A stretch of 64,000 nucleotides of DNA from Desulfuromonadales bacterium (GTDB lineage Bacteria > Desulfobacterota > Desulfuromonadia > Desulfuromonadales > SZUA-540): positions 1 through 64,000 of the forward strand of contig JAWSUS010000002.1 of the NCBI GenBank assembly GCA_033549025.1, written 5' to 3'. Position numbers and translations under genes: made by a program. This document shows positions 16,524 through 32,592 of the stretch, one piece after another. The notes beneath the pieces are model-generated. The model ran no database searches, had not been told where the DNA came from, and saw only the letters and a list, made by a program, of their open reading frames with translations. The stretch's first letter is position 1, and every line of letters starts with the position of its first letter.

Positions 16524-16991
16524 CTAACCCATCTTTTCAGCCAGATAGCACTGGATACCCATTTGCTCGATTTGATCCTTCTGCTCTTCGAGCCAGTCGA
16601 TATGACTTTCTTCGTCCTTCAAGATCTCTTCTAGCATGGTCTTGGTACCGTTATCGCCAACTTCCGCAGCAAGACGAATGGTTTCGTTGTATTTCTTGAT
16701 CGCATCGTCCTCGGCCTTCCAGTCCTTCTGATGCATTTCTTCGACTTTTTTTCCAATGGAAATAGGTCCAAGCTTGGAGACAATGGGTCGCCCTTCCAGG
16801 AAAAGGATACGCTCGATCAATTTTTCAGCGTGCTTCATCTCCTGGATCGAACGCTGCTTGATGGCCTGATGCAAAGAATCGTAGCCCCAGTCTTCGCACA
16901 TTTCCCCATGAACAAAATACTGGTTAATGGCCCCAAGTTCTTCGGCAAGTCGTTCGTTGAGAGCGTCAAGTAATTTCGCATTTCCTTTCAT
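16524..16991 (-). CDS. bfr: Bacterioferritin
   Basis: 155 aa from ATG 16991 (GGAGG RBS); EELGAINQY, EMKHAEKLIERILFLEG, DEESHIDWLE ferroxidase motifs. Confidence 0.95.
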   Translation of the reverse strand: MKGNAKLLDALNERLAEELGAINQYFVHGEMCEDWGYDSLHQAIKQRSIQEMKHAEKLIERILFLEGRPIVSKLGPISIGKKVEEMHQKDWKAEDDAIKKYNETIRLAAEVGDNGTKTMLEEILKDEESHIDWLEEQKDQIEQMGIQCYLAEKMG

Positions 16992-17150
16992 GTGCACCTC
17001 CTGAAGCATAGATTGACCAACATTCCTTGACTCTGATTTGAACCGTAACAGGGATTCAGGAGATTTCAAGGTGGACCGAATTTGGGTTGATTGTACCCGT
17101 AAGGATGGTCGTTCGTTGCCAAATTAGGCTGATGTGCATAAATTCAACGA

Positions 17151-17184
17151 CTAAACCCCGCCAGGCGCACCGGGCGGGGTTTAG
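17151..17184. terminator. GC-rich hairpin downstream of the J-domain gene
   Basis: CTAAACCCCGCC...GGCGGGGTTTAG inverted repeat; weak U-tract. Confidence 0.5.
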
Positions 17185-17199: not shown

Positions 17200-17490
17200 T
17201 TATTTGCCGCCCCAGATGGGATCATCGGCAAACTGGGCTTCGATTCTTGCCTCGGGATTCTGTTCGTAAAACTCCTGCTGCGTAAACGAAAAGCGATACC
17301 CCCCGACATACGCCATAAGCAGGCGATATGCGGCGTTGACCTGGCGAATGACCTCCGGATCTTCCCCGTTGCCCCTATCCGGGTGGTAGCGTTTCACCAG
17401 CTCTTTGTGACGCGCTTTAATTTCCGCCAGGGTGGCTTTCTCTCCCAGGCCCATGATTTCACAAGCATCCCGCAGTTCCGTAAAGGTCAT
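17200..17490 (-). CDS. Small DnaJ (J-domain) protein
   Basis: 96 aa; KRYHPD motif, VNAAYRLL helix; GAGG RBS. Confidence 0.85.
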   Translation of the reverse strand: MTFTELRDACEIMGLGEKATLAEIKARHKELVKRYHPDRGNGEDPEVIRQVNAAYRLLMAYVGGYRFSFTQQEFYEQNPEARIEAQFADDPIWGGK

Positions 17491-17511
17491 ATTACACCTC
17501 AGTTCGCCAGT

Positions 17512-18123
17512 TCATAGCTTGGTCCCTCGCAGAACGTAGAGGGCTGCTTGGCCGGGTTCATGGCTGGGAAAAATCTCCTGCCCATCGATGCCCAGAAAAT
17601 ATTCGCCCTGCACCGAAAACCTTGCCGCCATGGCCGCCTCCAGGGCGTTCAGGTCGGTGTGCCTGATTTTACGTACGTAGGAATCAGCTTCGGCGAGCTT
17701 GCCTTGAAAAAAGGAAGAAGCCGGATTGAGCAGCATGACGATGATTCTGCCCCCGGGGCGCAGCACCCGCGCGGCTTCGGACAGCGCCCGCCGGTAGTCC
17801 TCCATGAACTGCAAAGAGACTATGAAGAGGATGACATCGAAGCGGCCATCCTCAATCGGCATCTTCTCGGCCGGGGCGACGATGGTGCACAGGCTGTCCG
17901 GGGCACAGGCCAGGGCCTCCCTGGAGACATCCAGTCCCGTCACCGCAATACCCTGCTCACTCAGACCACTCTCGATGATGGCGGGTCCGCAGCCGACACT
18001 GAGAACACGATCCTCCGCACGAAGGTGCCTCAGCAGATAATCGAGTTCGGCGGCAAAGACCTTTCGCCAGAAGGGGCTCTGGCAGGAGGCCAGGTAACGC
18101 TCAGACTCCATGGAATGATTCAC
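17512..18123 (-). CDS. Class I SAM-dependent methyltransferase
   Basis: VLSVGCGP motif I, GLDVS, FDVI, RVLRPGG; GTG start after AAGGAG. Confidence 0.88.
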   Translation of the reverse strand: MNHSMESERYLASCQSPFWRKVFAAELDYLLRHLRAEDRVLSVGCGPAIIESGLSEQGIAVTGLDVSREALACAPDSLCTIVAPAEKMPIEDGRFDVILFIVSLQFMEDYRRALSEAARVLRPGGRIIVMLLNPASSFFQGKLAEADSYVRKIRHTDLNALEAAMAARFSVQGEYFLGIDGQEIFPSHEPGQAALYVLRGTKL

Positions 18124-18150
18124 AGCCAGCTCCTTGACGGATCGTCGCGG

Positions 18151-18381
18151 TCAACCAGCGGACCGACAAATGTCGAGCAGGTCTTCTATCTCGGGAAAAC
18201 GACGCGTTTCCAGACGGGAAAACTTCTGGGATTCATTAACGAAAATGGCGAATTCACTTTTTTGCTGGCCGACCACCATCTCAACATCGACCGCCGGCAG
18301 GCTTTTCTTCAATTCCGCAGCGAGACTCGCTGCACGGGGCTGATGCCCTCAAGACGCGCAATAAACAATTTTAACCTTCAT
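18151..18381 (-). CDS. Rdx-family (SelW/SelT/SelH-like) selenoprotein, 76 aa, CxxU motif; absent from the ORF track
   Basis: Manual translation MKVKIVYCAS-U-GHQPRAASLAAELKK...EFAIFVN...FSRLETRRFPEIEDLL; in-frame TGA at 18349-18351; hairpin 15 nt downstream. Confidence 0.88.
18317..18333 (-). promoter_or_regulatory. Putative bacterial SECIS element (Rdx gene)
   Basis: GCAGCGA-gtc-TCGCTGC perfect stem, G in the apical loop, shortly 3' of the UGA. Confidence 0.65.
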
Positions 18382-18411
18382 TGTACCAATCCTTTCCTTG
18401 TTAGACTGAAA

Positions 18412-18765
18412 TCACTCTTTCTCGTTTACCTCGGGTCGATGGGCGCTGAGGCAACACTGGCTTTGCACGACGGGAGGATTTTCCGCTTCTTCTCCCAGCA
18501 GCTTCAGAATGCCCGCCGCCAGCTCAGGCCGGCAGATAAAGTAGCAGCGCTGAGCCCCTTTTTGGGTAAAGTCAACGAGTTTCGCATGCCGCAGCACCGT
18601 CAAGTGTTGGGAAATGTTGGCCTGAGAAGCGGGAAGCAAATCCTGAATGTCATTTACGCATTTGGTCCCCTGGAGCAACTCCGCCACAATCTGAAGGCGA
18701 GTTGGATGCGCAAGAGCTTTTAGCGTGGCAGCGCCGTCATTGGCTTTTTTAAAATCCATCCCCAT
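18412..18765 (-). CDS. ArsR/SmtB-family metalloregulator
   Basis: LKALAHPTRLQI, KCVNDI, SQANISQHLTVLR; C-terminal CC pair. Confidence 0.92.
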   Translation of the reverse strand: MGMDFKKANDGAATLKALAHPTRLQIVAELLQGTKCVNDIQDLLPASQANISQHLTVLRHAKLVDFTQKGAQRCYFICRPELAAGILKLLGEEAENPPVVQSQCCLSAHRPEVNEKE

Positions 18766-18777
18766 CCCCCCTGGCTA

Positions 18778-18795
18778 TATTCGAATATTCTAATA
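18778..18795. promoter_or_regulatory. Putative ArsR operator
   Basis: AT-rich near-palindrome TATTCGAAT/ATTCTAATA (8 of 9 paired) immediately upstream of the ArsR gene. Confidence 0.55.
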
Positions 18796-19143
18796 ACATT
18801 TCAGAAGAATAGGTGCAAGAACAATTTTACGGTAGGTCACGGGGGTATCAACTTCGTACAGGCGCGAACACCAATCTCCAGCAGGTCGTGAAACTAACCG
18901 TTCGAAAAGCAATAAAAACGCACTAAACAGGCTGTGTTGCCGGCGCAGCGATGATTTCGGTTATCCTGAGCTCGGGTCCAAAAAGGGAATCCACCGCTGA
19001 TTTGCCCTTTCGGGTGACAATTGTGCCACAAGTCAGGTCAGTCGAAAATCGCCTGAATGAAGCACCTAACAGCCTGCAGTGACAGCCATTCCATGAAAAT
19101 CGGGGGAGGGCTGTTATGCTATACAAAAACCAAGGAGATAATC

Positions 19144-19803
19144 ATGACACTCCAAGACGAACTGAAAAAGGTCAAATCCGGATTTAAAAAGAACTCCGAC
19201 TCTGAAGCACAGGAGGTCATGGGGCGGGCGACGGAAGACCTGCGGAACTCAGGCATTCTTGACAGGGTTCTCAAAACAGGTGATCCCATTCCCGATTTTG
19301 TTCTGGAAACGCCAGAGGGCGAGAAAATAAGCTCTAGCAAATTGCTGTCCCGTGGCCCGCTGGTCATCCATTTTTTTCGAGGAGGCTGGTGACCTTTCTG
19401 CAGCGCGGAGCTGGACGCTCTGCAGGAAGCCCACGCCGAAATCAAGGGGACCGGCGCTCAACTGGTTGCCGTTTCACCCCTGCTTGCCGAACATGCCGCA
19501 CAAACCATTGAAAAACATAACCTGAGCTTTCCCTTGCTGCTCGACCCCGGCAACAGGCTGGCTCAAAAATTCCGTCTGGTTCACGTTCTTCCCCCTGACC
19601 TGCGCAAAGTGTATCTGCGCTTTGGGCTTGACCTGCCAAAATACAACGGTGATGACAGCTGGAGTCTGCCTCTGGCGGCCCGTTATATCGTGCGCCCCGA
19701 CGGCATCATCCACGACGTCAACGTCGACACGGATCACACGCGTCGTCCCGAGCCAGCGGAGGCCGTGGAGATTCTGCGGCAGTTGCCGACCACGACTATC
19801 TAG
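19144..19803 (+). CDS. Peroxiredoxin-like (AhpC/TSA, redoxin) selenoprotein, 219 aa, UxxC motif
   Basis: ORF-track fragments 19057-19392 and 19534-19803 are in one frame; reads FFRGGW-U-PFC-SAELDALQ with TGA at 19390-19392; AAGGAG RBS before ATG 19144. Confidence 0.88.
19398..19425 (+). promoter_or_regulatory. Putative bacterial SECIS element (peroxiredoxin-like gene)
   Basis: CTGCAG-c-GCG-gagctgga-CGC-t-CTGCAG stem-loop beginning 5 nt after the UGA. Confidence 0.55.
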
Positions 19804-19828
19804 GCTGAACACAACCAAGAATCGGGAT

Positions 19829-20611
19829 ATGCCAATGACACAAACCGATCCTGACGAAAACCAGACTGGCAACGACCTTGCCGGGAAGATACAGCAGCTT
19901 CTGCTGCCAAAGGCGCCTCCTCACTGCAACTGGTGTTGCATTGGCGTGAAAAACCTAATGGCCGTGGGCGTTGGCGGCGATTTCTTTGAATTCGCTCCCA
20001 CCCATGACGGCTGCCAAGTGGTAATGGTCGGTGACGTAACTGGCCATGATGTCGCCGCGGCTGTAGTAATGTCCCTGATTTACGGCTACATTCACCGCAG
20101 TATCGAGCAAGAATGTTCGCCCTTGGAGGTCGTCCAGCAGGTCAATCGCTTCCTCAACAAATTTGGCGCCCGTTCGGAAAAATACGACCATCTTTTTTCT
20201 TCGACGCTGTTTTTCGGTGTCATCGCACCGGAAACAATGGAGATGCTTTACGTCAACGCCGCCCATCCCTCGCCCCTGGTTCGGCGCGGCGATAGATTGT
20301 TCGAGCTTGAAGCCAGTGCGCCGCTGATCGGATTTTTCCCGGTGGAGGACGATGCCGTGCGATCTTTTCAGTTCGAAAAAAATGACCGTCTGTTTCTCTA
20401 CACCGACGGCATCAGCGAAACAACCAACCGGCAGGGGGAGATGTTTGGTACACAGCGTCTGAAAGCCCAACTGCAAGCCCATCAGGGCGACCAGGATGAG
20501 TTCCTGGACAACCTCTTTGTCTCGCTTAATCAATTCAACGGCTCCGCCCCTCCCCGTGATGACTGCACTGCCATTGTCATAGATTTTCATCGACCCCAAC
20601 CGACGGCCTGA
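19829..20611 (+). CDS. Stand-alone PP2C/SpoIIE (RsbU-like) phosphatase
   Basis: IQQLLLP, VGGDFFE, VGDVTGH, YVNAAHP, LYTDGISE, DDCTAI; start 19829 or 19835. Confidence 0.9.
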   Translation: MPMTQTDPDENQTGNDLAGKIQQLLLPKAPPHCNWCCIGVKNLMAVGVGGDFFEFAPTHDGCQVVMVGDVTGHDVAAAVVMSLIYGYIHRSIEQECSPLEVVQQVNRFLNKFGARSEKYDHLFSSTLFFGVIAPETMEMLYVNAAHPSPLVRRGDRLFELEASAPLIGFFPVEDDAVRSFQFEKNDRLFLYTDGISETTNRQGEMFGTQRLKAQLQAHQGDQDEFLDNLFVSLNQFNGSAPPRDDCTAIVIDFHRPQPTA

Positions 20612-20648
20612 AGCAGGTGCCCCTTACTTTTCGACTTCATCAGCGCCA

Positions 20649-20708
20649 TTGACAGCCGCGAAATTCGCGATACATTTAAAAACAAACCGACCGGTATGTT
20701 TTTAAATG
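20649..20708 (+). promoter_or_regulatory. Sigma70 promoter overlapped by a 36-bp palindromic TetR operator
   Basis: TTGACA at 20649-20654; CATTTAAAAACAAACCG-ac-CGGTATGTTTTTAAATG (17-bp arms, one mismatch) at 20673-20708. Confidence 0.75.
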
Positions 20709-20717
20709 GAGACGCTT

Positions 20718-21371
20718 ATGGGGTCAAAAGGGGAAAAAACCAGGCAGAGAATCCTGAACGATACCGCTGAACTCTTTAGGACTAAGGGCTTCGGTGCCAC
20801 CAGCATTAAGGATCTACTGGAAGCAACGGGCGTCACCAAAGGAAGCCTGTACTTTCATTTCCCGGGCAAGGACGAACTGGCGCTTGAATACCTGCGGCAG
20901 GAAGGTGAACGGTTCATGGCTTTTATCGAGGCAGGTCTCGAAGGAAAGACAGCCGTCGAAAAAATCGACCGTTTTCTGCACAAGGCCCTGGCCTATCATC
21001 GCGGCACCGGCTTCGTCGGCGGTTGCCTGTTCGGCAACACCGCCCTGGAAACCAGCGATACCTCGCCGGCTTTTGCCGCACTGACCGCAGACATTTTTAC
21101 GCAATGGAAAAAAAAACTGGCCGTCGTTATTGCCCAAGCACAGGCCGATGGCAGTATGCAGCCAGCGCACAAGGCTGAAGATGTCGCTGAGTTTATCATT
21201 GCCGTCCTTGAAGGGGGCATCATGCAGTCGCGCCTGCACAAAACAGAAAGGCCCATGAAAAACTGCATCAGGACCTTGCGTCTGATGCTTTATCCCAATC
21301 CCCCGAGTCGGGAAGCCAACTCTACTCACCAATCACAAGGAGAAAAACATGAGCCGCCTCAAGACTCTTGA
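20718..21371 (+). CDS. TetR/AcrR-family regulator (NemR/LmrA-like)
   Basis: KGFGATSIKDLLEATGVTKGSLYFHFPGK HTH; GCLFGN motif; ATG 20718 after GGAG (alternative 20706). Confidence 0.92.
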   Translation: MGSKGEKTRQRILNDTAELFRTKGFGATSIKDLLEATGVTKGSLYFHFPGKDELALEYLRQEGERFMAFIEAGLEGKTAVEKIDRFLHKALAYHRGTGFVGGCLFGNTALETSDTSPAFAALTADIFTQWKKKLAVVIAQAQADGSMQPAHKAEDVAEFIIAVLEGGIMQSRLHKTERPMKNCIRTLRLMLYPNPPSREANSTHQSQGEKHEPPQDS

Positions 21372-21879
21372 CCCGCAGTCGCCGCAAGCATCCACCGTTG
21401 AAATTTTTGCTGAAATCACAAACGCCTTTGGCATGGTACCCAACCTTTTTCGTGCCTACGCCAATCACCCCCCGCTGCTGGAGGCCAACTGGTTCAAGGT
21501 TAAAAAAGTGATGATGGAGGGGATTCTTCCCCGCAAGGTCAAGGAAACAATCGCCGTCGTGGTTTCCCGGGACAACAGTTGCAACTACTGCGTCGCCGCC
21601 CACGAAGGGGCATTGCGTTCCATCGGTGTCTCGAGCGAGGAGATCCGGGCCATCGAAACCGATCTGGGACAGGCCGACTTCAGCCCCAAGGAGCAGGCTC
21701 TTATTAAATTTGCCCGACAGGCCAACAGCGACCCTTTGCGTATCAAGGGTGCCGAAATCGAGGCCCTGCGCGACCTGGGCGCTGACGATGCCGAGCTTGT
21801 TGAAGCCTTGGGTGTCATGGAACTTTTTGTAGGGTTCAACAAGTTTCTTGAGGCCCTGCAGATCGAAATCGACTTTTAG
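21349..21879 (+). CDS. AhpD-like peroxidase-related protein (CMD family)
   Basis: GMVPNLFR, KETIAVVVSRDNSCNYCVAAH motif. Confidence 0.88.
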   Translation: MSRLKTLDPQSPQASTVEIFAEITNAFGMVPNLFRAYANHPPLLEANWFKVKKVMMEGILPRKVKETIAVVVSRDNSCNYCVAAHEGALRSIGVSSEEIRAIETDLGQADFSPKEQALIKFARQANSDPLRIKGAEIEALRDLGADDAELVEALGVMELFVGFNKFLEALQIEIDF

Positions 21880-21957
21880 AGGCATCATAAATAGTACGCG
21901 GATGCAGAGAAATGAATCGCCACCTAAAACCACTTAAATCAGTCAAGGGATGCCGCA

Positions 21958-22290
21958 ATGGATACTTATTACAACCCCAATGACCTGAATCTCTTCACGA
22001 ACATCGGCCAGGATGCCCCAGACCTGGCTCGCAAATTTTTTGACTACTACGGTGCCGTCTTTGCCGAAGGGGCCTTGAGTGAACGCGAAAAAGCCCTGAT
22101 CGCCCTGGCGGTAGCACACACGGTACAGTGTCCCTATTGCATCGATGCTTATACGAAGGCCTGCCTTGAAAAAGGCTCCGACTTGGAAGAGATGACCGAA
22201 GCTCTGCATGTGGCCGGGGCCATTCGCGGCGGGGCCTCCCTGGTGCACGGCGTACAGATGCGCAAAATTGCCGAAAAGTTGACCTTGTAA
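21958..22290 (+). CDS. Small CMD/AhpD-family protein of the type found beside ArsS-like radical SAM genes
   Basis: GALSEREKALIALAVAHTVQCPYCIDAY, IRGGASLVHGVQM. Confidence 0.85.
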   Translation: MDTYYNPNDLNLFTNIGQDAPDLARKFFDYYGAVFAEGALSEREKALIALAVAHTVQCPYCIDAYTKACLEKGSDLEEMTEALHVAGAIRGGASLVHGVQMRKIAEKLTL

Positions 22291-22302
22291 AAGGATGAGA
22301 CT

Positions 22303-23301
22303 ATGGGCTGTCCACAAAAACCGGCGCCGCAGCGACAAGCTGCCGGCCTTGAAAGTTTCTCCAGCACGTTGAGGCGACACGGACTAAGTCTGAGCCGCTC
22401 GACTTGCCGCATTTTTCAGATCAACGTCGGTCTGCTCTGTGACCTGTACTGCCGACATTGCCATTTGATGGCCGGCCCCGATCGTCATGAGGTCATGAGC
22501 GCGGAAACCATGCAAGAGGTGGTGGATTTCGCCCGACGCGGCGGTTTTGAGATGATCGACATCACGGGCGGCGCTCCCGAACTGGTGCCCGGCATCGAAG
22601 GGTTCGTTGCCGCTCTGGCCGAAGTAACACCACAGCTTATGTTGCGCTCCAACCTTACCGCTCTTAACTCGCCGGAAAGAGATGACCTGCTGAGCACCTG
22701 TGTCAGACATAAGGTCGCCCTGGTGGTTTCTTTTCCCGCCTTGCGCGAAGCCCAGGTGGCAGCGCAAAGGGGCGCAGGAGTCTGGGGAAAAAGTCTGGCG
22801 ATGCTGCACCGTCTCAACGAATTGGGTTACGGTTGCGAAGGTTCCGGGCTGGAGATTCACCTGGCAGTCAACCCGGGAGGAGCTTTTCTGCCAGCCAATC
22901 AGGCGGCCACGGAAAAACGCTATCGACGGGAACTGCAGGCGCGTTGGGGAATCGTTTTCAACAACCTCTTTACCCTGACCAACATCCCCTTGGGACGCTT
23001 CCGGCGCTGGCTGGAACGTTCTGGAAACTACGAAGACTATATGGAAAAACTGGCGGCTGCCTTTAATCCGGCCGTGATTGCGGGTCTGATGTGCCGCGAG
23101 CAGATCAGCGTATCCTGGGCCGGCTATGTGTTCGACTGCGATTTCCACCTGGCGGCCGGCATCTGCCAGGGCGAAAAATCGACTCATGTACGTGACCTGG
23201 CGACGGCGCCCCCCAAAGGCACCCCGATCGGCACCGCCGAGCACTGTTATGCCTGCACCGCTGGCGCCGGCTTTACCTGAGGGGGCGAAATCGCGACCTA
23301 G
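22303..23301 (+). CDS. ArsS-like radical SAM / Cys-rich (DUF3641-type) selenoprotein, Sec near the C-terminus
   Basis: CxxxCxxC (CDLYCRHC), DITGGAPE, DCDFH, HCYACTAGAGFT-U-GGEIAT-TAG; TGA at 23278-23280 sits where homologues have Cys (GxxCGG). Confidence 0.85.
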
Positions 23302-23310
23302 TTAGGTCGC
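23293..23310 (+). promoter_or_regulatory. Putative SECIS element (radical SAM gene)
   Basis: GCGACCT-agtt-AGGTCGC perfect stem 12 nt after the UGA, no U-tract. Confidence 0.65.
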
Positions 23311-23353
23311 ATGTGCTTTCAACGAGGTGGCCATTTCAGGAAGGGATTTCCCC

Positions 23354-25504
23354 ATGAAAGGCAACAGCAAAAAAATCCTCATCGTCCTGACCATTGCCAT
23401 ATTGGTCACGTTGTTCTTTGCTTTCGATCTGCAACGCTATCTGACCCTCGCTGAACTTAAAGCCCGGCAGGAAGCCTTCCAGCAATTTTACGCCAACAAC
23501 AAAACGCTGACCCTCGGGTTGTATTTTGTTTTCTACATCATCGTCATCGCCTTGTCCCTGCCCGGCGCGGCCGTCATGACTCTGGCCGCAGGCGCCCTGT
23601 TCAGCTTCCTTCCAGCCGTCATCGTGGTCTCCTTCGCCAGCACCATCGGCTCGACCCTGGCGTTTCTTGTCAGCCGCTTTTTGTTGCGCGACTGGGTCCA
23701 ATCCAGATTCCGCGAGCGCCTCAAAACGATTAACGCCGGCATTGAGCGAGACGGGCATTTTTACCTCTTTACCCTGCGACTGGTGCCGATTTTTCCTTTG
23801 TTCATAATCAACCTGGTCATGGGCCTCACCCCCATGAGTACCCTGACCTTTTACTGGGTCAGCCAGCTCGGCATGCTGGCCGGCACCGCCGTCTATGTGA
23901 ATGCCGGTGCCCAGCTCGGCCAGATAGAAAGTTTGGGCGGCATACTTTCCCCGGAACTGATCTTTTCCTTTGCCTTGCTGGGAATTTTTCCCTTGTTGGC
24001 CCGTAAAGGCGTCGACATCATGCAAAAACGTCGCAGTCTCAAAGACTTCCCCAAACCTGAATCCTTTGATTACAACGTCGTCGTTCTTGGAGCCGGCTCT
24101 GCCGGCCTGGTCAGCGCCTATATCGCGGCGGCGGTCAAGGCCAAGGTGGCCCTGATCGAAAAAGACAAGATGGGCGGGGATTGCCTCAACACCGGCTGTG
24201 TTCCGAGCAAGGCGCTGATCCGTTCAGCAAAAATGCTTGCCTACGCTCGCCGCGCCACAGAATTCGGTCTGCAGCAATCAATGACTGACTTTGATTTCGC
24301 CGAGGTCATGGCGCGGGTACACCGCGTGGTGAAAAAAGTCGAACCGCACGATTCGGTGGAACGCTACACGGCGCTTGGCGTGGAATGCATCAAGGGCGAG
24401 GCACGCATCACCTCACCCTACACCGTGCAGGTCGGCGAGCGAATCCTGTCCACACGCAACATCATTGTCGCTACCGGTGCCGAGCCCTTCATACCTCCCA
24501 TTCCTGGACTCGACCAGGTGGATTATCTGACCTCGGATAATCTCTGGCAATTGCGCGAATTACCTCGGCGGCTGGTGGTACTGGGCGGCGGCCCTATCGG
24601 CTGCGAAATGGCCCAGGCTTTTGCACGCTTTGGTGCCCAGGTGACCCAGGTAGAGATGGCGCCACAGCTCATGGGGCGCGAGGACTCTGATGTCGCGGCT
24701 TTTGTACGCGAGCGCTTCGAGGCCGAAGGGGTGCGGGTACTGACCGAACACGCCGCCAAGGAAGTTCAGGTCAAAGACCAGGAGAAGATCCTGGTGTGTG
24801 AGCATCAGGGGCAAAAAGTCGAGGTGCCTTTCGACGCTATCCTGGTTGCCGTGGGTCGGCGCGCTCGCACAACGGGGTTCGGCCTGGAGGAACTGGGGGT
24901 TCACCTCAGTCAGCGCGGCACCATCGAGGTCGATCCCTTCCTGCGCACCAACTTTCCCAACATCTTCTGCGCGGGCGATGTAGCCGGCCCCTACCAGTTT
25001 ACCCACACCGCCGCCCATCAGGCCTGGTATGCGGCGGTCAACGCCCTGTTCGGCGACTTCAAGAAGTTCCGTGCCGATTACCGCGTCATCCCCTGGTGTA
25101 CGTTTACCGACCCCGAAGTAGCGCGCGTCGGTCTCAACGAAGCTGAAGCCCGCGAGCAGAACATGGATCATGAAGTCACGCGATTTGAGCTGGCCGAATT
25201 GGATCGCGCCATCGCCGAGGGCGAGGAGCATGGCTGGATCAAGGTCATCACGCCGCCCGGACAGGATAAGATTCTCGGCGTAACCATCGTCGGCACTCAT
25301 GCCGGCGATCTGATCGCCGAATACATCCTGGCCATGAAGCACGGTCTCGGCCTCAACAAAATTCTCGGCACCATCCACCCCTATCCAACCCTGGCCGAAG
25401 CCAACAAAATGGCCGCTGGTGAGTGGAAAAAGGCCCATGTCCCGGAAAAACTGTTGGCATGGGTTGAAAAATACCACGCCTGGCGGCGGGGCCAGAAAGG
25501 GTAA
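23354..25504 (+). CDS. DedA/TVP38 membrane domain fused to a pyridine nucleotide-disulfide oxidoreductase
   Basis: N-terminal LSLPGA...LRLVPIFP; GAGSAG, GGDCLNTGCVPSK, GGGPIGCE, HPYPT; ATG 23354. Confidence 0.9.
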   Translation: MKGNSKKILIVLTIAILVTLFFAFDLQRYLTLAELKARQEAFQQFYANNKTLTLGLYFVFYIIVIALSLPGAAVMTLAAGALFSFLPAVIVVSFASTIGSTLAFLVSRFLLRDWVQSRFRERLKTINAGIERDGHFYLFTLRLVPIFPLFIINLVMGLTPMSTLTFYWVSQLGMLAGTAVYVNAGAQLGQIESLGGILSPELIFSFALLGIFPLLARKGVDIMQKRRSLKDFPKPESFDYNVVVLGAGSAGLVSAYIAAAVKAKVALIEKDKMGGDCLNTGCVPSKALIRSAKMLAYARRATEFGLQQSMTDFDFAEVMARVHRVVKKVEPHDSVERYTALGVECIKGEARITSPYTVQVGERILSTRNIIVATGAEPFIPPIPGLDQVDYLTSDNLWQLRELPRRLVVLGGGPIGCEMAQAFARFGAQVTQVEMAPQLMGREDSDVAAFVRERFEAEGVRVLTEHAAKEVQVKDQEKILVCEHQGQKVEVPFDAILVAVGRRARTTGFGLEELGVHLSQRGTIEVDPFLRTNFPNIFCAGDVAGPYQFTHTAAHQAWYAAVNALFGDFKKFRADYRVIPWCTFTDPEVARVGLNEAEAREQNMDHEVTRFELAELDRAIAEGEEHGWIKVITPPGQDKILGVTIVGTHAGDLIAEYILAMKHGLGLNKILGTIHPYPTLAEANKMAAGEWKKAHVPEKLLAWVEKYHAWRRGQKG

Positions 25505-25509
25505 CCGTC

Positions 25510-26343
25510 ATGAAACTAACGTCCTATGTACTACTGATAGCCCTTTTACTGATAACCACTCTTCCAGGCAAGGTAGCGGCCGCGCCCAAGGCTGAGCTCT
25601 GGGCGCGCTGGCAGGCACACGATTCGGCAAGCAAGAAGGTTGTGGACCACAGCGCCTGGGATCAATTTCTGTCGTATTATCTGGTAACCAATCATCCTTC
25701 GGGAATCAATCGAGTCCGGTACGGAGCAGTTAGTCCCGAGGATCGCCGGAATCTCCACGCCTACCTCGACCGTCTTCAGCAGACACGGGTCTCTGAACTG
25801 AATCGACCCGAGCAGATGGCCTACTGGATCAATCTGTACAATGCTCTGACTGTTCGGGTCGTACTGGAGCATTATCCTGTCAGCAGTATTCGGCACATCC
25901 ACATTTCACCGGGTTGGCTCAGCCGCGGCCCCTGGGGTGCTAAGCTGCTACGTATTGAAGATGAAGAATTGTCCCTCGACGATATCGAACACCGCATTTT
26001 ACGCCCTATCTGGCAGGACGCACGCATTCATTACGCCCTCAACTGCGCCAGCATCGGGTGCCCCGATTTACAGCCGCAAGCCTTTACCGCCGCCAATACG
26101 GATGCCTTACTCAACCAAGCAGCACATAATTACGTCAACCATCCGCGCGGTGTCACCGTTGGAGACCATCGACTGCATCTGTCTTCCATCTACGACTGGT
26201 TTCTGGCGGATTTTGGCGGCAACCGCGACGGCATCATGCACCATCTAAAAACATATGCCGAACCGACCTTGGTCCAGCAGTTGGAAATGTTCAGCGGGCG
26301 GTTTGTCTATGATTATGACTGGAGACTCAACGAAGCGCCTTGA
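25510..26343 (+). CDS. DUF547-domain exported protein
   Basis: Signal peptide; AYWINLYNA, LDDIEHRILR, RIHYALNCASIGCP, YDWRLN. Confidence 0.88.
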   Translation: MKLTSYVLLIALLLITTLPGKVAAAPKAELWARWQAHDSASKKVVDHSAWDQFLSYYLVTNHPSGINRVRYGAVSPEDRRNLHAYLDRLQQTRVSELNRPEQMAYWINLYNALTVRVVLEHYPVSSIRHIHISPGWLSRGPWGAKLLRIEDEELSLDDIEHRILRPIWQDARIHYALNCASIGCPDLQPQAFTAANTDALLNQAAHNYVNHPRGVTVGDHRLHLSSIYDWFLADFGGNRDGIMHHLKTYAEPTLVQQLEMFSGRFVYDYDWRLNEAP

Positions 26344-26376: not shown

Positions 26377-26412
26377 GAAAGGCCCGCAACACATGCTGCG
26401 GGCCTTTGCTTT
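26377..26412. terminator. Bidirectional terminator
   Basis: AAAGGCCCGCA...TGCGGGCCTTT between convergent genes. Confidence 0.75.
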
Positions 26413-26451: not shown

Positions 26452-29400
26452 CTAGTTCTCCTCGTCCGACTGCCGCCGACTGACCAGCAGATAGAGGCAG
26501 GGCAGCACGAAAAGGGTCAGCAGGGTTGAGGTGAGCACACCGCCGATGACCACGGTGGCCAGGGGTCGCTGCACTTCGGCGCCAACGCCGATGGAGAGGG
26601 CCATGGGCAGAAAACCGACAGCATCGGTAACGGCGGTGGCCAGTACCGGAACCAGGCGCTGCCTGGCCGCCCCGGTGACCGCTTCGAACAGCGGCAGTCC
26701 GTCGGCCAGAAGGTTCCGGATAGCCGACACCAGCACCTGGCCGTTGAGCACGGCGATACCCGACAGAGCGATAAAGCCGATGGCGGCGCTGACGCTGAAG
26801 GGGATGCCGCGCATATAGAGAGCGAAGATCCCCCCTACCGCCGCCAACGGGATGCCGGTGTAGATAATGAGCACATCGCGCAGGCGCTTCAGGCTGAAAT
26901 AGAGGAGCACGAAGATCAGCAGCAGGGTCAGGGGCACTACCAGCATCAGGCGTTTCTGGGAGCGCTCCAGGTTTTCGAACTGGCCGCCCCATTCGATCAT
27001 GGTGCCTTCCGGAAGCAAAACGCCCTCGGCGATTTTGGCCTTGGCCTCATCGACGAAGGAAGCGATATCACGGTCCCGCACATTGACCTGCACCTTGATC
27101 AGCCGGCGTCCCCACTCGCGGTTGATGGTCGAGGGCCGCTCGACCTCCCGCACTTCGGCCAGGGCGCCGAGGGGGAGGACCGCGCCGGTGCGGGTGGGGA
27201 TCAGGGTGTTCTCCAGCGCCTTCACATCATGGCGCTGCGCATCGGGCAAACGCAGCACCAGCGGGAAGGAGCGCTCCCCTTCGAAAACTTCGCCCACCCG
27301 GGGGGTACCGACGGCGGCGATGATGTCGAGGACATCGCGGGCAGCCACCCCGTAACGGGACAAGGCCTGCCGGTCGACGGCAATCTGCAGGGTCGGCTGG
27401 CCGGTGATCTGCTCAACGGCCACGTCGGCAGCGCCCGGGATATCGTGCAGCAGATGTTCGACCTGCTCGCCCAGGGATACCAGGGTGTCGAAATTTTCCC
27501 CGTAGATCTTGATCCCCACATCGCCGCGGATGCCCGAAAGCATCTCGTTGACCCGCAGTTCAATGGGCTGGGTCAGCACCGAGCGGATGCCCGGCAGTCC
27601 ATGCAGAGCCTCTTCCACCCGGGCGGCCAGGTCGCCCTGGCTGTCGGCCCGGGTCCATTGCCGGCGCGGATGCAGGGTCATGAAAATGTCCGTGAGTTCC
27701 GTCCCCATGGGGTCGGTGGCGACTTCGGCGCTGCCCAGACGGCTCCAGATGTGGCGTATTTCATTGGGGAAAGCCTTGAGCAGCAGCTTCTCCATCTCGG
27801 TATTGTAGGCAATGGACTCGTCCACGGATACACCCGCCAACCGCACCACGCTGACCACCAGCGAGCCTTCGGACAGGCGAGGCAGAAATTCGCCGCCCAG
27901 ACGGGTGGCCAGCAGGATGGAAGCGACCAGCACGACCGTGACCGCAACCAAAAAAGCCCGGCGCCAGCGCAACACCATCTCCAGCAAGGCGCCATAGCGG
28001 CTTTTGAGCCAGCCATCAACCTTGCGCTCCTCGACCCGCAGCTGCTTGGGCATGAACTGGAAAGAGAGAACGGGGGACAGGAAGATGGCCACCACCAGGG
28101 CGCCGAGCAGGGCGAAGATAAAGGTCCAGGCCATGGGCTTGAACATCTTCCCTTCGATCCCCTCCAGGGTCAGCACGGGCAGAAAAACCAGCACGATAAT
28201 GCCCAGGCCGAAGACGATGGGGCGCACGACTTCCTGGCTGGAAGCCAGAATGGCATCGAAGCGCTCCGCCGGGGTGAGTTGCCGCCCCAGCTGCATCTGG
28301 CGTTCAGTGAGGCGTCGCAGGTTGGCTTCGGTCATGACGACGGAGCCATCCACTAGAATGCCGAAATCGATGGCGCCCAGGGACAGCAGGCTGGCGGCAA
28401 TCCCCATCTCCTGCATACCGAAGGCGGCAAAGAGCATGGCCATGGGTATGGTGGCCGCCACCAGCAGTCCGGCCCGCAGATTGCCGAGCAGCAGGAAGAG
28501 CACGGCGATGACCAGCAGAGCGCCGGCCGCCAGGTTGTGCTTGACCGTGTCGATGACCTGGTCGACGAGCTCGGTGCGGTCGTAGACCGTTTCGAGCAAG
28601 ACGTCGTCGGGCAGGGCCTTCTTCACCCGTTCCAAGGCCAGCTTCAGGTCGCTGGTCACCTCGCGGCTGTTCTCGCCCATGAGCATGAACCCGAGGCCGA
28701 GGACCACCTCGCCCTTGCCCGCGGCCGAAACGGCGCCGCGACGCAGCTCATGGCCGATAGCCACCTCGGCCACATCGCCGACCTTGACGGCGGCGCCCTG
28801 ATAGGCGGTGATGACGATACCGGCGATCTCTTCAACACTCGCGACCCGGCCCAGGCCATGCACCAGCAGGGTCTGGCCGCCGGTGACCACCTGGCCGCCC
28901 CCCACGTTGGCGTTGTTTTCGCGTAGGGCGGTGGCGACATCGCCGTAGGTCAGGTTGTATTTGATAAGGGCGTCGGGAGAAACGATAACGTGGTACTGTT
29001 TCTCCAGGCCCCCCCAGGAGTTGACTTCCGCCACCCCCGGCACCTTGCGCAGCTCCGGCTTGACGACCCAGTCGTGCAGTGTGCGCAGCTCGTCGAGAGT
29101 CCGCTCCGGATGGTCAGAGCGCAGCACATAGTGAAAGACCTCCCCCAACCCGGTGGAAATGGGCCCCAGCTCGGGACGTTCGATCCCTTCCGGCAGCGAG
29201 ACGCTGGCCAGCCGCTCCATGATGAGCTGGCGGGAATCGAGAATCGGCATCTCGTCTTCAAAGATGGCCACGACCTGCGAGAGGCCGAACTTGGAAATGG
29301 ATCGGACATGCACCAGCCCCGGCAGGCCGGAGACGGCCAGCTCCACGGGCTGGGAAATCTGCATTTCAATTTCTTCCGGCCCCAGGGCCGGGGCGGTGGT

Positions 29401-29550
29401 GTTGATCTGCACCTGCACCGGGGTGGTGTCGGGAAAAGCATCGACGGGCAGGCGCAGCAGGGACCAGAGGCCGGCGGCAAAGGCCAGCACAAAGCAGAGG
29501 ACGACGACCAGGCGATTGCGCAGGGCCGCCGCGATGAGTTTTTCCAGCAT
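26452..29550 (-). CDS. czcA: Heavy-metal efflux RND permease, CzcA/CusA family
   Basis: LPVDAFPD, AIDFGILVDGSVVMTE, GAEVQRPLATVVIGG. Confidence 0.92.
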   Translation of the reverse strand: MLEKLIAAALRNRLVVVLCFVLAFAAGLWSLLRLPVDAFPDTTPVQVQINTTAPALGPEEIEMQISQPVELAVSGLPGLVHVRSISKFGLSQVVAIFEDEMPILDSRQLIMERLASVSLPEGIERPELGPISTGLGEVFHYVLRSDHPERTLDELRTLHDWVVKPELRKVPGVAEVNSWGGLEKQYHVIVSPDALIKYNLTYGDVATALRENNANVGGGQVVTGGQTLLVHGLGRVASVEEIAGIVITAYQGAAVKVGDVAEVAIGHELRRGAVSAAGKGEVVLGLGFMLMGENSREVTSDLKLALERVKKALPDDVLLETVYDRTELVDQVIDTVKHNLAAGALLVIAVLFLLLGNLRAGLLVAATIPMAMLFAAFGMQEMGIAASLLSLGAIDFGILVDGSVVMTEANLRRLTERQMQLGRQLTPAERFDAILASSQEVVRPIVFGLGIIVLVFLPVLTLEGIEGKMFKPMAWTFIFALLGALVVAIFLSPVLSFQFMPKQLRVEERKVDGWLKSRYGALLEMVLRWRRAFLVAVTVVLVASILLATRLGGEFLPRLSEGSLVVSVVRLAGVSVDESIAYNTEMEKLLLKAFPNEIRHIWSRLGSAEVATDPMGTELTDIFMTLHPRRQWTRADSQGDLAARVEEALHGLPGIRSVLTQPIELRVNEMLSGIRGDVGIKIYGENFDTLVSLGEQVEHLLHDIPGAADVAVEQITGQPTLQIAVDRQALSRYGVAARDVLDIIAAVGTPRVGEVFEGERSFPLVLRLPDAQRHDVKALENTLIPTRTGAVLPLGALAEVREVERPSTINREWGRRLIKVQVNVRDRDIASFVDEAKAKIAEGVLLPEGTMIEWGGQFENLERSQKRLMLVVPLTLLLIFVLLYFSLKRLRDVLIIYTGIPLAAVGGIFALYMRGIPFSVSAAIGFIALSGIAVLNGQVLVSAIRNLLADGLPLFEAVTGAARQRLVPVLATAVTDAVGFLPMALSIGVGAEVQRPLATVVIGGVLTSTLLTLFVLPCLYLLVSRRQSDEEN

Positions 29551-29562
29551 GGGACCCCCTTT

Positions 29563-31107
29563 CTAGTGATCGGCGCAGGACGCGCCCAGGCGCGCCTTGA
29601 GAACCTCGGATTTGAGTGCGAAACCCTGCCTCGACACCACCTGTTCCTCCGCCTGCAGACCGGCGGCGACCACGACGAGACCACTCTGCTGCGCCCCCGT
29701 GGCAATGCGGCGCAGTTCGAACAGGTCGGCATCCTCCTGAATGAACACATAGGGGAAACCGTCGATGTGCTGCACGGCCTCGGCGGGAATGGTCAGATTA
29801 AGGCCCTCGACCCCTTCGAGCAGGCGGACGTTGCCATACATGCCGGCCTTGAGGCGATGGTCGGGATTGGGCACTTCGGCCAGAGCAGTCAGGGTGCGAC
29901 TGCGCTCGTCCACCTGGGCGCCGACCTGAAAGAGTCGGCCGCTGAACACCGCGCCGGGCAGACCGTCGAAACGGGCCTGCACGGCGGCACCGGGCTGGGC
30001 CTGGGCGATGCGGGCCTCGGGAATGGCGAGTTCGACCCACAGGGTATCGAGGTCAGCCACCGTGAAGAGGGGGCTGCCAGCCTGGATGTTTTCCCCTGCC
30101 GCCGTGCGCACCTCGGTCACCACCCCGTTAAAGGGAGCCCGCAGGGCCAGGGTCGTGCTGGCCTCCGGCGACTGCATCAGGCGGTCGATGTCGCGGGTAG
30201 AGAGGCCAAATTGCCGCAGCTGCTGACGATGCTGTTCACTGAGGCTCTGCAGTACCCGGTACTCGGCTTCGGCCTGCTGAAACTCCTGACGGGAGGTGAT
30301 GCCGCGCTCCAGCAGATCCTTTTCCCGCAGATAGACGGCCTCGGCCTGCGCCAGTCGGGCCAGCGAACCGGAGAGCTCGGCCTGCAGGCGGGCAACCTCC
30401 GCCATGGCGACCTCGGCCAGCACATCTCCTTTGGCCACGGTGCTGCCCGGCTGCACGGGGACGCGCAGAACCACTCCCGTCGCCAGCGGGGCAATGGTGG
30501 CCAGCTTCGTGCGGTTGAAGACCGCCCGGCCGGGAACATCTACCCCGGCGGCCAGGGAGATCTCTTGGGGGCGGGTCAAGCGGATGCCGGCCTTGGCCGC
30601 CGCCTCCAGCGTCCCCAGACGAACCTTCATGCCCTGTCCCGGTTGCAGTTCAGCCAGATGGCTGCCCTGACAGAGGGCGCATTCTGACTCGATCACCTGG
30701 TGTTCGGGGCAGAGTTCGTCGCCGGAACCATGGTTGTGCCCGGCATGACTGTCCTCCGGCTCACGGCCGTGGTCATGGCCGGCGTGGGGATCGACGGCTT
30801 TGGCCTGGCCATGGTCATCCACAGCCTCCTTCACATGTTCGTCATGCTCAGCGTGGTCGTCGTGTTCAGCGTGTTCACCGTGATTCTCATGGTCATCACA
30901 AGCCTGGCCGTCGTCGCTGATCAGGGACATGGTCTCGAGGGCCGGTTGGCCATGGGAGTCTTCTTCAGCATGGTCATGGCCGGCATGAGAGCTGGCGTGC
31001 TCTTCGGCGGCGATGGCGCTGGGCGGAAGCTCGCCCCCCTTGAACAGCAGCAGACCGCCAAGCAGGGCCAGGGGCAATAAGAAAAAATAAGGACGTTTAT
31101 TCATCAC
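29563..31107 (-). CDS. czcB: Heavy-metal efflux MFP with His/acid-rich N-terminal domain
   Basis: MFP core (LRAPFNG, VDERSRT, LKAGM); His-rich tract and CPEH..EC..C; C-terminal CADH. Confidence 0.85.
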   Translation of the reverse strand: MMNKRPYFFLLPLALLGGLLLFKGGELPPSAIAAEEHASSHAGHDHAEEDSHGQPALETMSLISDDGQACDDHENHGEHAEHDDHAEHDEHVKEAVDDHGQAKAVDPHAGHDHGREPEDSHAGHNHGSGDELCPEHQVIESECALCQGSHLAELQPGQGMKVRLGTLEAAAKAGIRLTRPQEISLAAGVDVPGRAVFNRTKLATIAPLATGVVLRVPVQPGSTVAKGDVLAEVAMAEVARLQAELSGSLARLAQAEAVYLREKDLLERGITSRQEFQQAEAEYRVLQSLSEQHRQQLRQFGLSTRDIDRLMQSPEASTTLALRAPFNGVVTEVRTAAGENIQAGSPLFTVADLDTLWVELAIPEARIAQAQPGAAVQARFDGLPGAVFSGRLFQVGAQVDERSRTLTALAEVPNPDHRLKAGMYGNVRLLEGVEGLNLTIPAEAVQHIDGFPYVFIQEDADLFELRRIATGAQQSGLVVVAAGLQAEEQVVSRQGFALKSEVLKARLGASCADH

Positions 31108-32483
31108 TGACCTCTCTGGTTTGATACGGAGGTTAAGGTTTGGTCTTCATTGGCGGACAGGGGGTGACCGAGCTGCTTCTCCAGCTCGGCCCAGGCCTGA
31201 TGATAGGTTTCCAGACTGTCGATATAACGGCTGCGGGTCTGAAAGAGACTCTGTTCGGCCTCCAGAACCTCGAGAAATCCGAATTTGCCGGCCTTGTAGC
31301 CATAGGTGATCGCCTCAAAGCTCCGCTGCACCGCCGGGAGCAGGGTCTGGCGCAACATCTCGGCCTCGGCCTGCGCCGCCAGCAGCTGCTGGCGAAGCGC
31401 CCCCAATTCGGTTCGCAGCGCCATTCGCACCTCGCGGGCCTGGGCCGCAGCCTGGGCCTGACGGGAGCGCGCCGCGCCGATGGTTCCCTGTTGACGGTCA
31501 AAGAGGGGCAGACTGAAGGCAATGCCGGCCACCAGGGCCTGGTCGCCACTCTCTTCCATTTGCTTGGCGCCCAGGCTCAGGCTCAGATCGGGAATACGAC
31601 TGGCCCGGGCCAGTTCCAGATCGCGGCCGGCCCGCTGCCCGGCAAGACGTTGCCGCAGTACCGCCGGGCTCTGCTCCAGACGGGCCTCCATAGCGGCCTC
31701 GTCGGGCAGCGGCGGCATCTGCTCCAGATCGGCTTCAATAGCCCCGGCCACTGCCCCTCTGGCCTCATCTGCCCACAGGGCCCTCAGCGCCAGCCAGGCG
31801 GCCGCCTCTTCCTGCCGGGCCTGGACCTGGCGCAGCTGGGTTTCGGCGACCAGCGATTCCATCCGCACCCGCTCGATTGCGGCCGACTTACCGGCGGCGA
31901 TGCGGTTGTCAACGGCCGCGAGCAGCTGAAGAGCGAGTCCATGCTGCTCAGTCGCCAACGCCTGCCGCTGCTGGGCCGCGGCCACGGCGACAAAACGCCG
32001 GGTCGCCTCCGCCGCCACTTCGGCCCGGGCCGCGGCATAGTCGCTCTCGGCCAGGGCGACATCCGTACGCCCCAGGGCTTTGCGGCCCGCTCTTTTGCCG
32101 CCCAGTTCCACCTGTTGACTGAGCATGAGGGTCGTTTCGGCCCGCTGCGTGCCGGAAAACTCGCCGCTGCCGGCGAAATCCTCCATCTCGATGGCGAGTT
32201 CCGGGTTGGCCCACAACCCCGCCTGCCGCAGCTCTTGCTGCCGGACCTGAATTTCTTCCGAAAAGACCGCCAGGCGGGGATGGCTTTCCAAGGCCTTGGC
32301 CACCGCCGTCGACAGGGTCAGCGCCGCGGCGACATCGGATTCAAGGCCGACGGTTTCCTGAATGGATCGTGGTGTCTGGCCGGAAGCCTGGACGGCGGCA
32401 TCAGCCCCCCAGGCAATGGGGGCGATACCGATAAGGCCCAGCCCAAGCGCAGCACCGAAAGCAACCAGAGCCTTTTTGGGCAT
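31104..32483 (-). CDS. czcC: Heavy-metal efflux outer membrane protein (TolC family)
   Basis: SQQVELGGKR, LPLFDRQQG, YKAGKFGFLEVL; ATG 32483 after GGAGG. Confidence 0.85.
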   Translation of the reverse strand: MPKKALVAFGAALGLGLIGIAPIAWGADAAVQASGQTPRSIQETVGLESDVAAALTLSTAVAKALESHPRLAVFSEEIQVRQQELRQAGLWANPELAIEMEDFAGSGEFSGTQRAETTLMLSQQVELGGKRAGRKALGRTDVALAESDYAAARAEVAAEATRRFVAVAAAQQRQALATEQHGLALQLLAAVDNRIAAGKSAAIERVRMESLVAETQLRQVQARQEEAAAWLALRALWADEARGAVAGAIEADLEQMPPLPDEAAMEARLEQSPAVLRQRLAGQRAGRDLELARASRIPDLSLSLGAKQMEESGDQALVAGIAFSLPLFDRQQGTIGAARSRQAQAAAQAREVRMALRTELGALRQQLLAAQAEAEMLRQTLLPAVQRSFEAITYGYKAGKFGFLEVLEAEQSLFQTRSRYIDSLETYHQAWAELEKQLGHPLSANEDQTLTSVSNQRGQ

Positions 32484-32592
32484 GGTTGAACCTCCGTATT
32501 TTATTGTTGTTCTCACGATTTAAAGAAGGACGGACGAATCCCACAGGTTTCCTGGGAAACTGAGGGTACCGAGACTGAGCGGAAGGGGTGGT

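Follow-up and report, generated by a model that had tools for sequence, protein, structure and literature searches.

Two separately conserved gene blocks with three likely selenoprotein genes in a Desulfuromonadales genome

Genes of the locus and their in-frame TGA codons

The stretch of DNA analyzed here, referred to as the window, comprises the first 64,000 nucleotides of a contig of a Desulfuromonadales bacterium (G000:C2:1-64000 in our numbering, G000 being the host genome), whose genome is 3.39 Mb in size, 57.9% GC and 100% complete. Positions 17200-26343 hold 12 genes. On the minus strand are genes for a J-domain protein, a methyltransferase, a SelW-family protein and an ArsR-family repressor; on the plus strand follow, in this order, a Prx-like protein, a PP2C phosphatase, a TetR repressor, an AhpD protein, a TIGR04169 peroxidase-like protein, the radical S-adenosylmethionine (SAM) enzyme ArsS, a DedA-reductase fusion and a DUF547 protein. 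We consider it probable that these genes make up two separately conserved blocks, placed head to head, each with its own regulator and a likely operator, and that the three in-frame TGA codons within them very likely encode selenocysteine (Sec). The ArsR-SelW-methyltransferase-J unit (17200-18796) is called block A, and the Prx-PP2C unit together with the TetR-led operon (19144-26343) is called block B. What was observed directly are features of the sequence, scores against family models, the order of genes, conserved motifs and decay in sister species; all chemistry and regulation discussed below is inferred.

A sequence-only reading of this region had proposed that three genes within about 5 kb carry an in-frame TGA at a redox-cysteine position, each followed by a stem-loop, and had named further genes, all of which we found at the locus by open reading frame (ORF) and family scans. 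The three TGAs are present at 18351 (CxxU), 19390 (UxxC) and 23278 (FTUGG), 4.93 kb from first to last. As that reading had noted, the ORF list misses SelW, splits the Prx-like gene (19057-19392 and 19534-19803) and shortens ArsS by seven residues. All three codons fall where homologues have Cys; FT-U-GG is, however, not a redox motif of the thioredoxin type, and its Sec residue occupies the eighth and last invariant Cys position in ArsS. The SelW/Rdx-family protein has 76 amino acids (18151..18381, minus strand; PF10262) and passes the CxxU model TIGR02174 with U read as C (51 bits, cut-off 34.2); alignment places its Sec codon at 18349..18351 (U11 in YCASUG), and a hairpin with a GUC loop lies at 18317..18333. 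The Prx-like AhpC/TSA protein of 219 amino acids (19144..19803, plus strand; PF00578, 84.3 against 26) reaches the cut-off of no NCBIfam model; its Sec codon is 19390..19392 (U83 in GWUPFC) and its hairpin 19405..19423. ArsS, of 332 amino acids (22303..23301, plus strand; TIGR04167, 369.4 against 300), has its Sec codon at 23278..23280 (U326 in GFTUGG) and a hairpin at 23293..23310 that spans the stop codon, with the 3' arm in non-coding DNA. Each of these structures, which resemble selenocysteine insertion sequence (SECIS) elements, has seven pairs, begins 13-16 nucleotides downstream of the TGA, carries a G as the first or second nucleotide of its loop and recurs in homologues; they were assessed by our own folding and not with bSECISearch.

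Homologues were compared in an order-level set of 221 genomes (the host and 220 others). The TGA is inside 22 of 22 SelW, 60 of 65 Prx and 32 of 98 ArsS matches. In excised loci it occupies the same codon in 18/18 SelW, 11/11 Prx (host included) and 19/32 ArsS sequences, the remaining 13 ArsS loci having a Cys codon at this position, and alignments of all three families show that sequence conservation continues past the TGA. Cys counterparts are frequent for ArsS (69 of 73 distant loci) and for Prx (86 of 87 matches, although the search pattern itself required Cys), while no Cys-type SelW orthologue was found among the 22 matches. The strongest evidence for Sec comes from the ArsS hairpin, since its 3' arm lies beyond the stop codon and hence under no protein constraint: 122 of 126 cells are paired across 18 distinct TGA sequences, compared with 52 of 91 in 13 Cys homologues, and three of the 18 TGA sequences show changes on both sides. 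Pairs were counted per sequence in the better of two registers, by the same rule for the Sec and Cys sets; this raises pairing in both, and related sequences are not independent. An ungapped alignment count of 57.8% was discarded in favor of this recount because loops vary between 4 and 5 nucleotides.

The sequence-only reading had also called for Sec machinery, which the genome contains: selA, selB and selD exceed their cut-offs and lie together on C5, tRNA-Sec (selC) is on C3, and selD itself carries one TGA. Our genome-wide TGA scan, in which 20 candidates were checked, gave seven known Sec families and nine false cases; the other four were two open cytochrome-like frames and two domain-spanning TGAs without a Sec family among those checked. 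The resulting count of at least 13 Sec genes is a floor. For 13-25 genes placed at random in 3.39 Mb, three within 4.93 kb are expected with P = 0.0015-0.013, so the cluster exceeds uniform placement, a null that disregards the ordinary clustering of redox genes. On these comparisons, all three TGAs are very likely read as selenocysteine.

Several other frames of the host genome also contain TGAs. A 62-residue DUF6132 protein with an in-domain TGA (CVGNT-U-G) and a hairpin (G000:C23:19272-19457, L243) is a candidate selenoprotein, and a HEPN_AbiV-like domain with an internal TGA (G000:C23:49123-49437, L239) may be a pseudogene rather than a Sec gene. In-frame TGAs were further seen in a second SelW (G000:C21:29580-29843, L242), a tandem HesB-like pair (C25:12947-13618), a GSU3128-family AhpD (C5:65206-65502) and each of two cytochrome-like frames (C17:11661-18565).

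Composition and conservation of the two blocks

Block A, all on the minus strand, is led by an ArsR/SmtB-family repressor of 117 amino acids (18412..18765; NF033788, 80.4 against 55), in which only cysteines C36 and C74 are invariant across orthologues. Ahead of it, the palindrome ATATTCGAATAT and an overlapping degenerate copy (18777..18796) form a likely ArsR operator. Its core is present in all 11 upstream regions, with TATTCGAATAT found upstream of 11/11 ArsR orthologues; the predicted operator occurs in one place in the genome at up to one mismatch and is a single site in the window. SelW is followed by a class I SAM methyltransferase of 203 amino acids (17512..18123; PF08241; GTG start after AAGGAG) with an invariant Cys near the N-terminus and another in motif I, and the last gene encodes a small J-domain protein of 96 amino acids (17200..17490; PF00226, 36.5 bits against 27.8). 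The SelW clade was found in 21 of the 220 other genomes, 17 of which yielded excised loci; its neighbours there are trxB (11), the ArsR orthologue (10), the methyltransferase (7) and the J-domain gene (4), and the host copy of block A is without trxB. In none of the 17 loci does a block B gene (ArsS, Prx, TIGR04169 or TetR) stand beside SelW, nor does SelW share a contig with ArsS or Prx in any of the 21 genomes, five of which have ArsS and three Prx and most of which are fragmented assemblies. All three genes occur in one genome only in G009 and G040, on different contigs. The ArsR clade, present in 20 of 221 genomes, also heads other cargo, including genes that by resemblance encode another methyltransferase as well as CGGC-motif and cysteine-desulfurase-like proteins. 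By these patterns, block A is a separate module, likely autoregulated and concerned with thiol stress. We did not find the ArsR-trxB-SelW-methyltransferase module described in the literature searched.

Two assignments within block A were considered and rejected. The methyltransferase is not ArsM by its score (NF008823, 27 against 263) and has Val where ArsM has the SNCV cysteine. The ArsR protein, considered as an arsenite sensor, lacks the conserved three-Cys As(III) site of the ELCVCDL type; a C-terminal CC is present in 3 of 10 aligned rows, several of which are incomplete. Among solved structures, its closest relatives include the 6o8k series, HlyU and repressors of the BigR type. A canonical arsR-arsC-acr3-permease operon is located at C2:68.9-72.3 kb, 43 kb from the island.

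All genes of block B are on the plus strand. The Prx-like gene is followed by a stand-alone SpoIIE/PP2C phosphatase of 260 amino acids with an N-terminal C-x-W-x-C motif (19829..20611; PF07228, 144 against 25), which could possibly be a redox-gated phosphatase. This family occurs in 101 of 221 genomes, has the C-x-W-x-C motif in four of five aligned sequences and often adjoins DUF547, DUF3179 or flavin reductase genes. Before tetR lies a sigma70-like promoter on the plus strand (TTGACA-16-TACATT, 20649..20676), whose TTGAC -35 element is present in 8/8 regions; sigma70 matches in the window as a whole are at chance level (4 found, 4.1 expected). A likely TetR operator, AAACCGACCGGTATG (20684..20698, plus strand), sits within a 36-nucleotide inverted repeat. 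Its motif AAACC-N3-CGGT is found upstream of seven of eight TetR orthologues and, within the genome, before tetR and once on C3 (G000:C3:112522, a match with one mismatch). The repressor (20706..21371, start probably 20718; PF00440, PF16925, PF21993) has an LmrA/YxaF-like C-terminal domain and an invariant GGC cysteine; in NemR-like TetRs, such cysteines sense oxidants or electrophiles. The operon continues with an AhpD/CMD peroxidase-related protein (CNYC; 21349..21879; TIGR01926, 99.9 against 81.8), an arsenosugar-biosynthesis-associated peroxidase-like protein (CPYC; 21958..22290; TIGR04169, 192 against 120), ArsS, a fusion of a DedA/VTT membrane domain with a flavoprotein disulfide reductase (CLNTGC; 23354..25504; PF09335, PF07992, PF02852) and a DUF547 protein with a hydrophobic N-terminus resembling a signal peptide (25510..26343; PF04784, 97.8 against 27). 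MerA was rejected as an identity for the DedA fusion, which scores below the cut-off (TIGR02053, 405.5 against 454.45) and is without the C-terminal Cys pair.

Parts of block B recur in relatives. G086 has Prx, PP2C, TetR and AhpD on one contig with ArsS and adjacent to it; L051, which gets no separate count beside G086, shows the full order through the DedA-reductase and a DUF547 remnant. G040 has block B minus PP2C with an intact arsM-like gene upstream, G022 has block B minus Prx with an arsM 5' remnant upstream, and G052 has TetR through DedA-reductase. These four genomes belong to one related family (f20), and G068 and G019 contain TetR, DedA-reductase, PP2C and ArsS in other orders. Around 18 TGA-type ArsS loci, which span 4-20 kb and in several cases end at contig ends, we counted TIGR04169 in 16, DedA-reductase in 10, DUF547 and TetR in 5 each, AhpD in 4, PP2C in 3, Prx in 2 and neither SelW nor ArsR in any. 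A broad contig scan with ArsS gave mostly distant Cys-type loci (TGA in 1 of 73), whose clusters include TIGR04169 in 66, DUF547 in 15 and the DedA-reductase fusion in 3. On one metagenome contig (L130, 1 of 80 loci), ArsS, a Cys-type Prx and arsM stand in a row; many contigs of the metagenome Prx scan are short, and because its pattern needs Cys, Sec forms cannot be sampled there. Judged by gene content and order, block B is a real conserved unit, a version of the known ArsS cluster that is enriched in redox genes and likely serves arsenosugar chemistry. The linkage proposed by the sequence-only reading thus holds for Prx-PP2C and the TetR unit in close relatives and does not extend to the ArsR-SelW unit.

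Within the genomes searched, blocks A and B adjoin each other only in this genus. A same-genus complete genome with 91-94% nucleotide identity (G002) keeps the J-domain, methyltransferase, ArsS(U) and DedA-reductase genes. Only remnants are left there of the 3' ends of SelW and TIGR04169 and of the divergent intergenic region, which aligns with a score of 77 where shuffled sequences reach 59 at most. A second sister species (G001) keeps J, PP2C and DedA-reductase and has the methyltransferase and ArsS as fragments; both retain selB. Erosion is therefore seen in two of the three species examined (G003, 78% complete, was left out at the locus), along lines that cut through the units, and such piecemeal decay despite a retained selB is unlike an obligate system. 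ArsR and TetR each have one conserved predicted operator with none in common, contrary to the shared regulation suggested earlier, and neither operator is found near the Prx start in the window at up to two mismatches. Co-presence of genes across the 220 genomes was left out of the evidence because kinship inflates such tests: Prx is associated with ArsS (39/21/53/107, Fisher p=3e-5), and SelW shows no association and a negative trend with either ArsS (p=0.10) or Prx (p=0.20).

ArsS and the arsenosugar pathway

The Sec-tailed ArsS carries the CxxxCxxC motif and the invariant C-terminal Cys set; C46, C50, C53, C264, C279, C315, C318 and C/U326 are invariant in 79 sequences. Its nearest named match, at 80% identity, is from a Geoalkalibacter metagenome-assembled genome. 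The predicted structure has a mean confidence score (pLDDT) of 90.4, with residues 323-332, which hold U326, below 50. Nearest folds of the model are SkfB, SuiB, EpeE and BlsE, proteins that carry Twitch or SPASM auxiliary clusters. A sequence search for solved structures found no ArsS and one distant radical SAM match. In the portions of the literature covered, cyanobacterial ArsS is described to add a 5'-deoxyadenosyl radical to methylated arsenic, using the product of ArsM and forming DDMAA (10.64898/2026.04.29.721666; 10.1101/2022.09.23.509062), and the related enzyme ArsL to bind arsenic by three C-terminal cysteines (10.64898/2026.04.29.721666). By homology, the ArsS studied here would add the same radical from SAM to methylated arsenic(III). 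C264, C279, C315 and C318 likely serve as ligands of an auxiliary Fe-S cluster, with U326 on its mobile tail likely capturing the As(III) substrate; alternatively, C315, C318 and U326 could together form the arsenic site.

The methylated substrate would come from external methylarsenicals or from one of two host proteins. The best ArsM-like match in the genome is a 1016-residue fusion of a radical SAM domain, an ArsM-like methyltransferase and DUF5714 (G000:C12, L044:5517-8567, minus strand), and long frames akin to it occur in eight other genomes. A MduS methyltransferase/AhpD selenoprotein is located on G000:C42 (L230; NF045649, 389.6 against 380 on part of the gene) and is a candidate methyl donor partner for ArsS. 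The gene for the TIGR04283 glycosyltransferase (G000:C6, L045:5290-10437) was seen between metK-like and ArsR-methyltransferase/ahcY-like genes, by resemblance a SAM-cycle neighbourhood.

Interpretation, known systems and setting

In the two-block reading, the TetR protein with its one invariant cysteine would likely repress its promoter until the thiol is oxidized or alkylated. Both AhpD-type CxxC proteins, together with the UxxC Prx-like protein and the membrane flavin reductase, would likely keep these thiols and selenols reduced and remove peroxide. Block A, a module of its own, comprises an ArsR in which two cysteines are invariant, a SelW redoxin that usually goes with thioredoxin reductase, a methyltransferase other than ArsM and a J-domain protein. 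Since relatives keep the blocks apart and the families are catalogued, this is probably not one new system.

Several observations weigh against this reading. Parts of A and B meet again in relatives: in G062 an operon that includes Prx(U) is headed by an ArsR orthologue and lies 2.3 kb from ArsS and DedA-reductase, and a J-domain gene lies near ArsS in G039 and G040. Remnants show that the common ancestor of the three genus members already had A next to B, and many relatives are fragmented assemblies, which hide linkage. Of the 39 other genomes with both Prx and ArsS, only three (G040, G086 and G062) have the two genes within 5 kb of each other. In the host genome, a stand-alone ArsM was not found (NF008823 and NF038099 below cut-off), leaving a gap in the supply of arsenic substrate, and the glycosyltransferases TIGR04282 (C11) and TIGR04283 (C6) are present, unlinked to ArsS. 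These genes give the impression of a common thiol-stress pool whose members recombine. In the G062 locus (L204, G062:C193:1-10726), the ArsR operon comprises methyltransferase, cysteine-desulfurase-like, CGGC-motif and Prx(U) genes, and the facing side has DedA-reductase, a Cys-type ArsS and an OsmC-like fusion.

The sequence-only reading had the three units acting together as one co-regulated Sec-dependent thiol/metalloid (As/Se) system, in which block A would methylate or sense the metalloid, ArsS would convert it and the redoxins would recycle active sites. The rarity of three Sec genes in 4.93 kb under uniform placement and the ancestral adjacency of A and B speak for such a system, as do the position of block A, which takes the place of arsM in G040 and G022, and the G062 operon, in which a member of this ArsR clade is joined to Prx(U) next to ArsS. 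We find it distinctly unlikely nonetheless, given that 0 of 21 SelW orthologues share a contig with ArsS or Prx, that the predicted operators are unit-specific, that the methyltransferase has Val at the ArsM SNCV position, that ArsR is without the Cys triad while a canonical ars operon is 43 kb away, and that the island decays piecemeal despite a retained selB. Of the role in arsenic and selenium handling, the arsenic link stands for the TetR-led unit, in which ArsS and TIGR04169 pass curated cut-offs and whose block is headed by arsM in G040 and by its remnant in G022; no evidence was found for selenium handling as such. Even less credible, and in our view extremely improbable, is the possibility that the TGAs act as normal stop codons or are lesions of pseudogenes. 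The island does decay in sister species and the ArsS TGA costs merely seven residues, yet the TGA recurs in 22/22 SelW, 60/65 Prx and 32/98 ArsS matches, conservation continues beyond it, the non-coding hairpin is kept only in TGA homologues with compensatory changes, and the genome has full Sec machinery.

A general oxidant and reactive-sulfur stress island, whose Sec-tailed ArsS would act on another thiol, sulfur or selenium substrate instead of arsenic, is unlikely. It would fit the Cys-bearing TetR at the head of the operon in place of an ars regulator, the G062 neighbours (a catalase-peroxidase-like fragment recognized from sequence, the OsmC-like fusion and the cysteine-desulfurase-like gene), the absence of TIGR04282 and TIGR04283 genes beside ArsS in all 31 order-level ArsS loci, and the presence of a G040-type arsM orthologue in merely 6 of 24 ArsS-bearing genomes. 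This last count comes from one query at E<=1e-40, from which other ArsM types can escape; the arsenosugar-family cut-offs passed by ArsS and TIGR04169, the presence of both glycosyltransferase families in the genome, the arsM gene or remnant heading the block in G040 and G022 and the ArsS-Prx-arsM order of L130 further argue for arsenic. It is also conceivable, if unlikely, that the Sec-tailed ArsS clade under a thiol-sensing TetR represents a distinct oxidant-induced pathway, in which the Sec tail would capture external methylated arsenic or selenium for conversion into adenosyl-metalloid sugars, with ArsR-SelW co-induced as a supply of reductant. This clade is mostly without nearby arsM and is accompanied by a pair of AhpD proteins, a selenoperoxidase, a phosphatase with a Cys motif and a membrane-bound flavin reductase; should such a pathway exist, arsenic cycling would gain an anaerobic branch that depends on selenium.

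The individual families are known selenoproteins, as the sequence-only reading had stated. In the text covered, the 2026 review PMC13188914 lists TIGR04167 (GxxU) and an AhpC/TSA Prx-like family and PMC2398784 describes SelW-like CxxU and Prx-like UxxC proteins as abundant. The Prx/SelW and Prx-like/AhpD gene pairs and larger SAO and Tso operons reported in PMC13188914 make selenoprotein gene clusters a known kind, and the island as a whole is not a new kind of system. With the parts of PMC13188914 and PMC2398784 that describe these pairs and operons it shares the clustering, a nearby ArsR-type regulator and a metalloid flavour; unlike in Tso and SAO, its three Sec genes are in three transcription units that are not conserved together, and Tso/Sao markers were found among none of the 12 island proteins (TsoR model, 29.3 against 115). 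The arsenosugar cluster (ArsS, TIGR04169, TIGR04282/TIGR04283, ArsM) likewise has ArsS and TIGR04169 adjacent, both over cut-off here, and DUF547 and DedA/reductase neighbours also occur in its distant Cys-type clusters; unlike in that cluster, arsM and glycosyltransferase genes are not adjacent here, a TetR with an invariant Cys stands at the head together with an extra AhpD, and Prx(U) and PP2C precede them. The near-N-terminal CxxU and above-cut-off score of SelW agree with the SelT/SelW/SelH group (Rdx, TIGR02174), from whose catalogued members it differs as a distinct clade in an ArsR-trxB-SelW-methyltransferase module. The Prx-like protein shares PF00578, UxxC and abundant Cys homologues with 'Prx-like 1' (pfam00578, UxxC; PMC2398784) or cd02970 (PMC13188914), as described in the portions covered, a subfamily placement by resemblance only. 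We did not find this gene order described in the literature found, including the covered text of PMC9312934, 10.1101/2022.07.06.499078 and 10.1101/2024.02.01.577332; Haft and Tolstoy 2025, the primary ArsS papers and supplements are outside this coverage and may contain the block.

Three mis-annotated genes are corrected here and two testable modules with predicted operators are defined. The useful part of these findings is the Sec-tailed ArsS. Natural exchange between Cys and Sec at a single invariant position marks this residue as the one likely to handle arsenic. The mechanism of ArsS, and the possible production of arsenosugars by metal-reducing anaerobes, thereby become directly testable.

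In public sequencing runs, the best holder contained 0.39 of the words, and pieces 87-99% alike cover both blocks; among the pieces listed, none spans blocks A and B. Two RNA runs gave short scattered contigs, uninformative on expression or co-transcription, and an Rfam scan of the window gave no matches. Inverted repeats I6 (17151..17184; 15-nucleotide arms, 93%), past the J-domain gene, and I11 (26378..26407), between DUF547 and czcA, are likely terminators. The island is flanked by bacterioferritin and ppsA genes (16524-17069 side) and by CzcCBA heavy-metal efflux genes (26452-32516); in G002, bfr is missing at the island edge and a FeoB-like gene, named by resemblance, is found there instead. 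GC content is 52-58% across 16-24 kb compared with 60-66% in the flanks.

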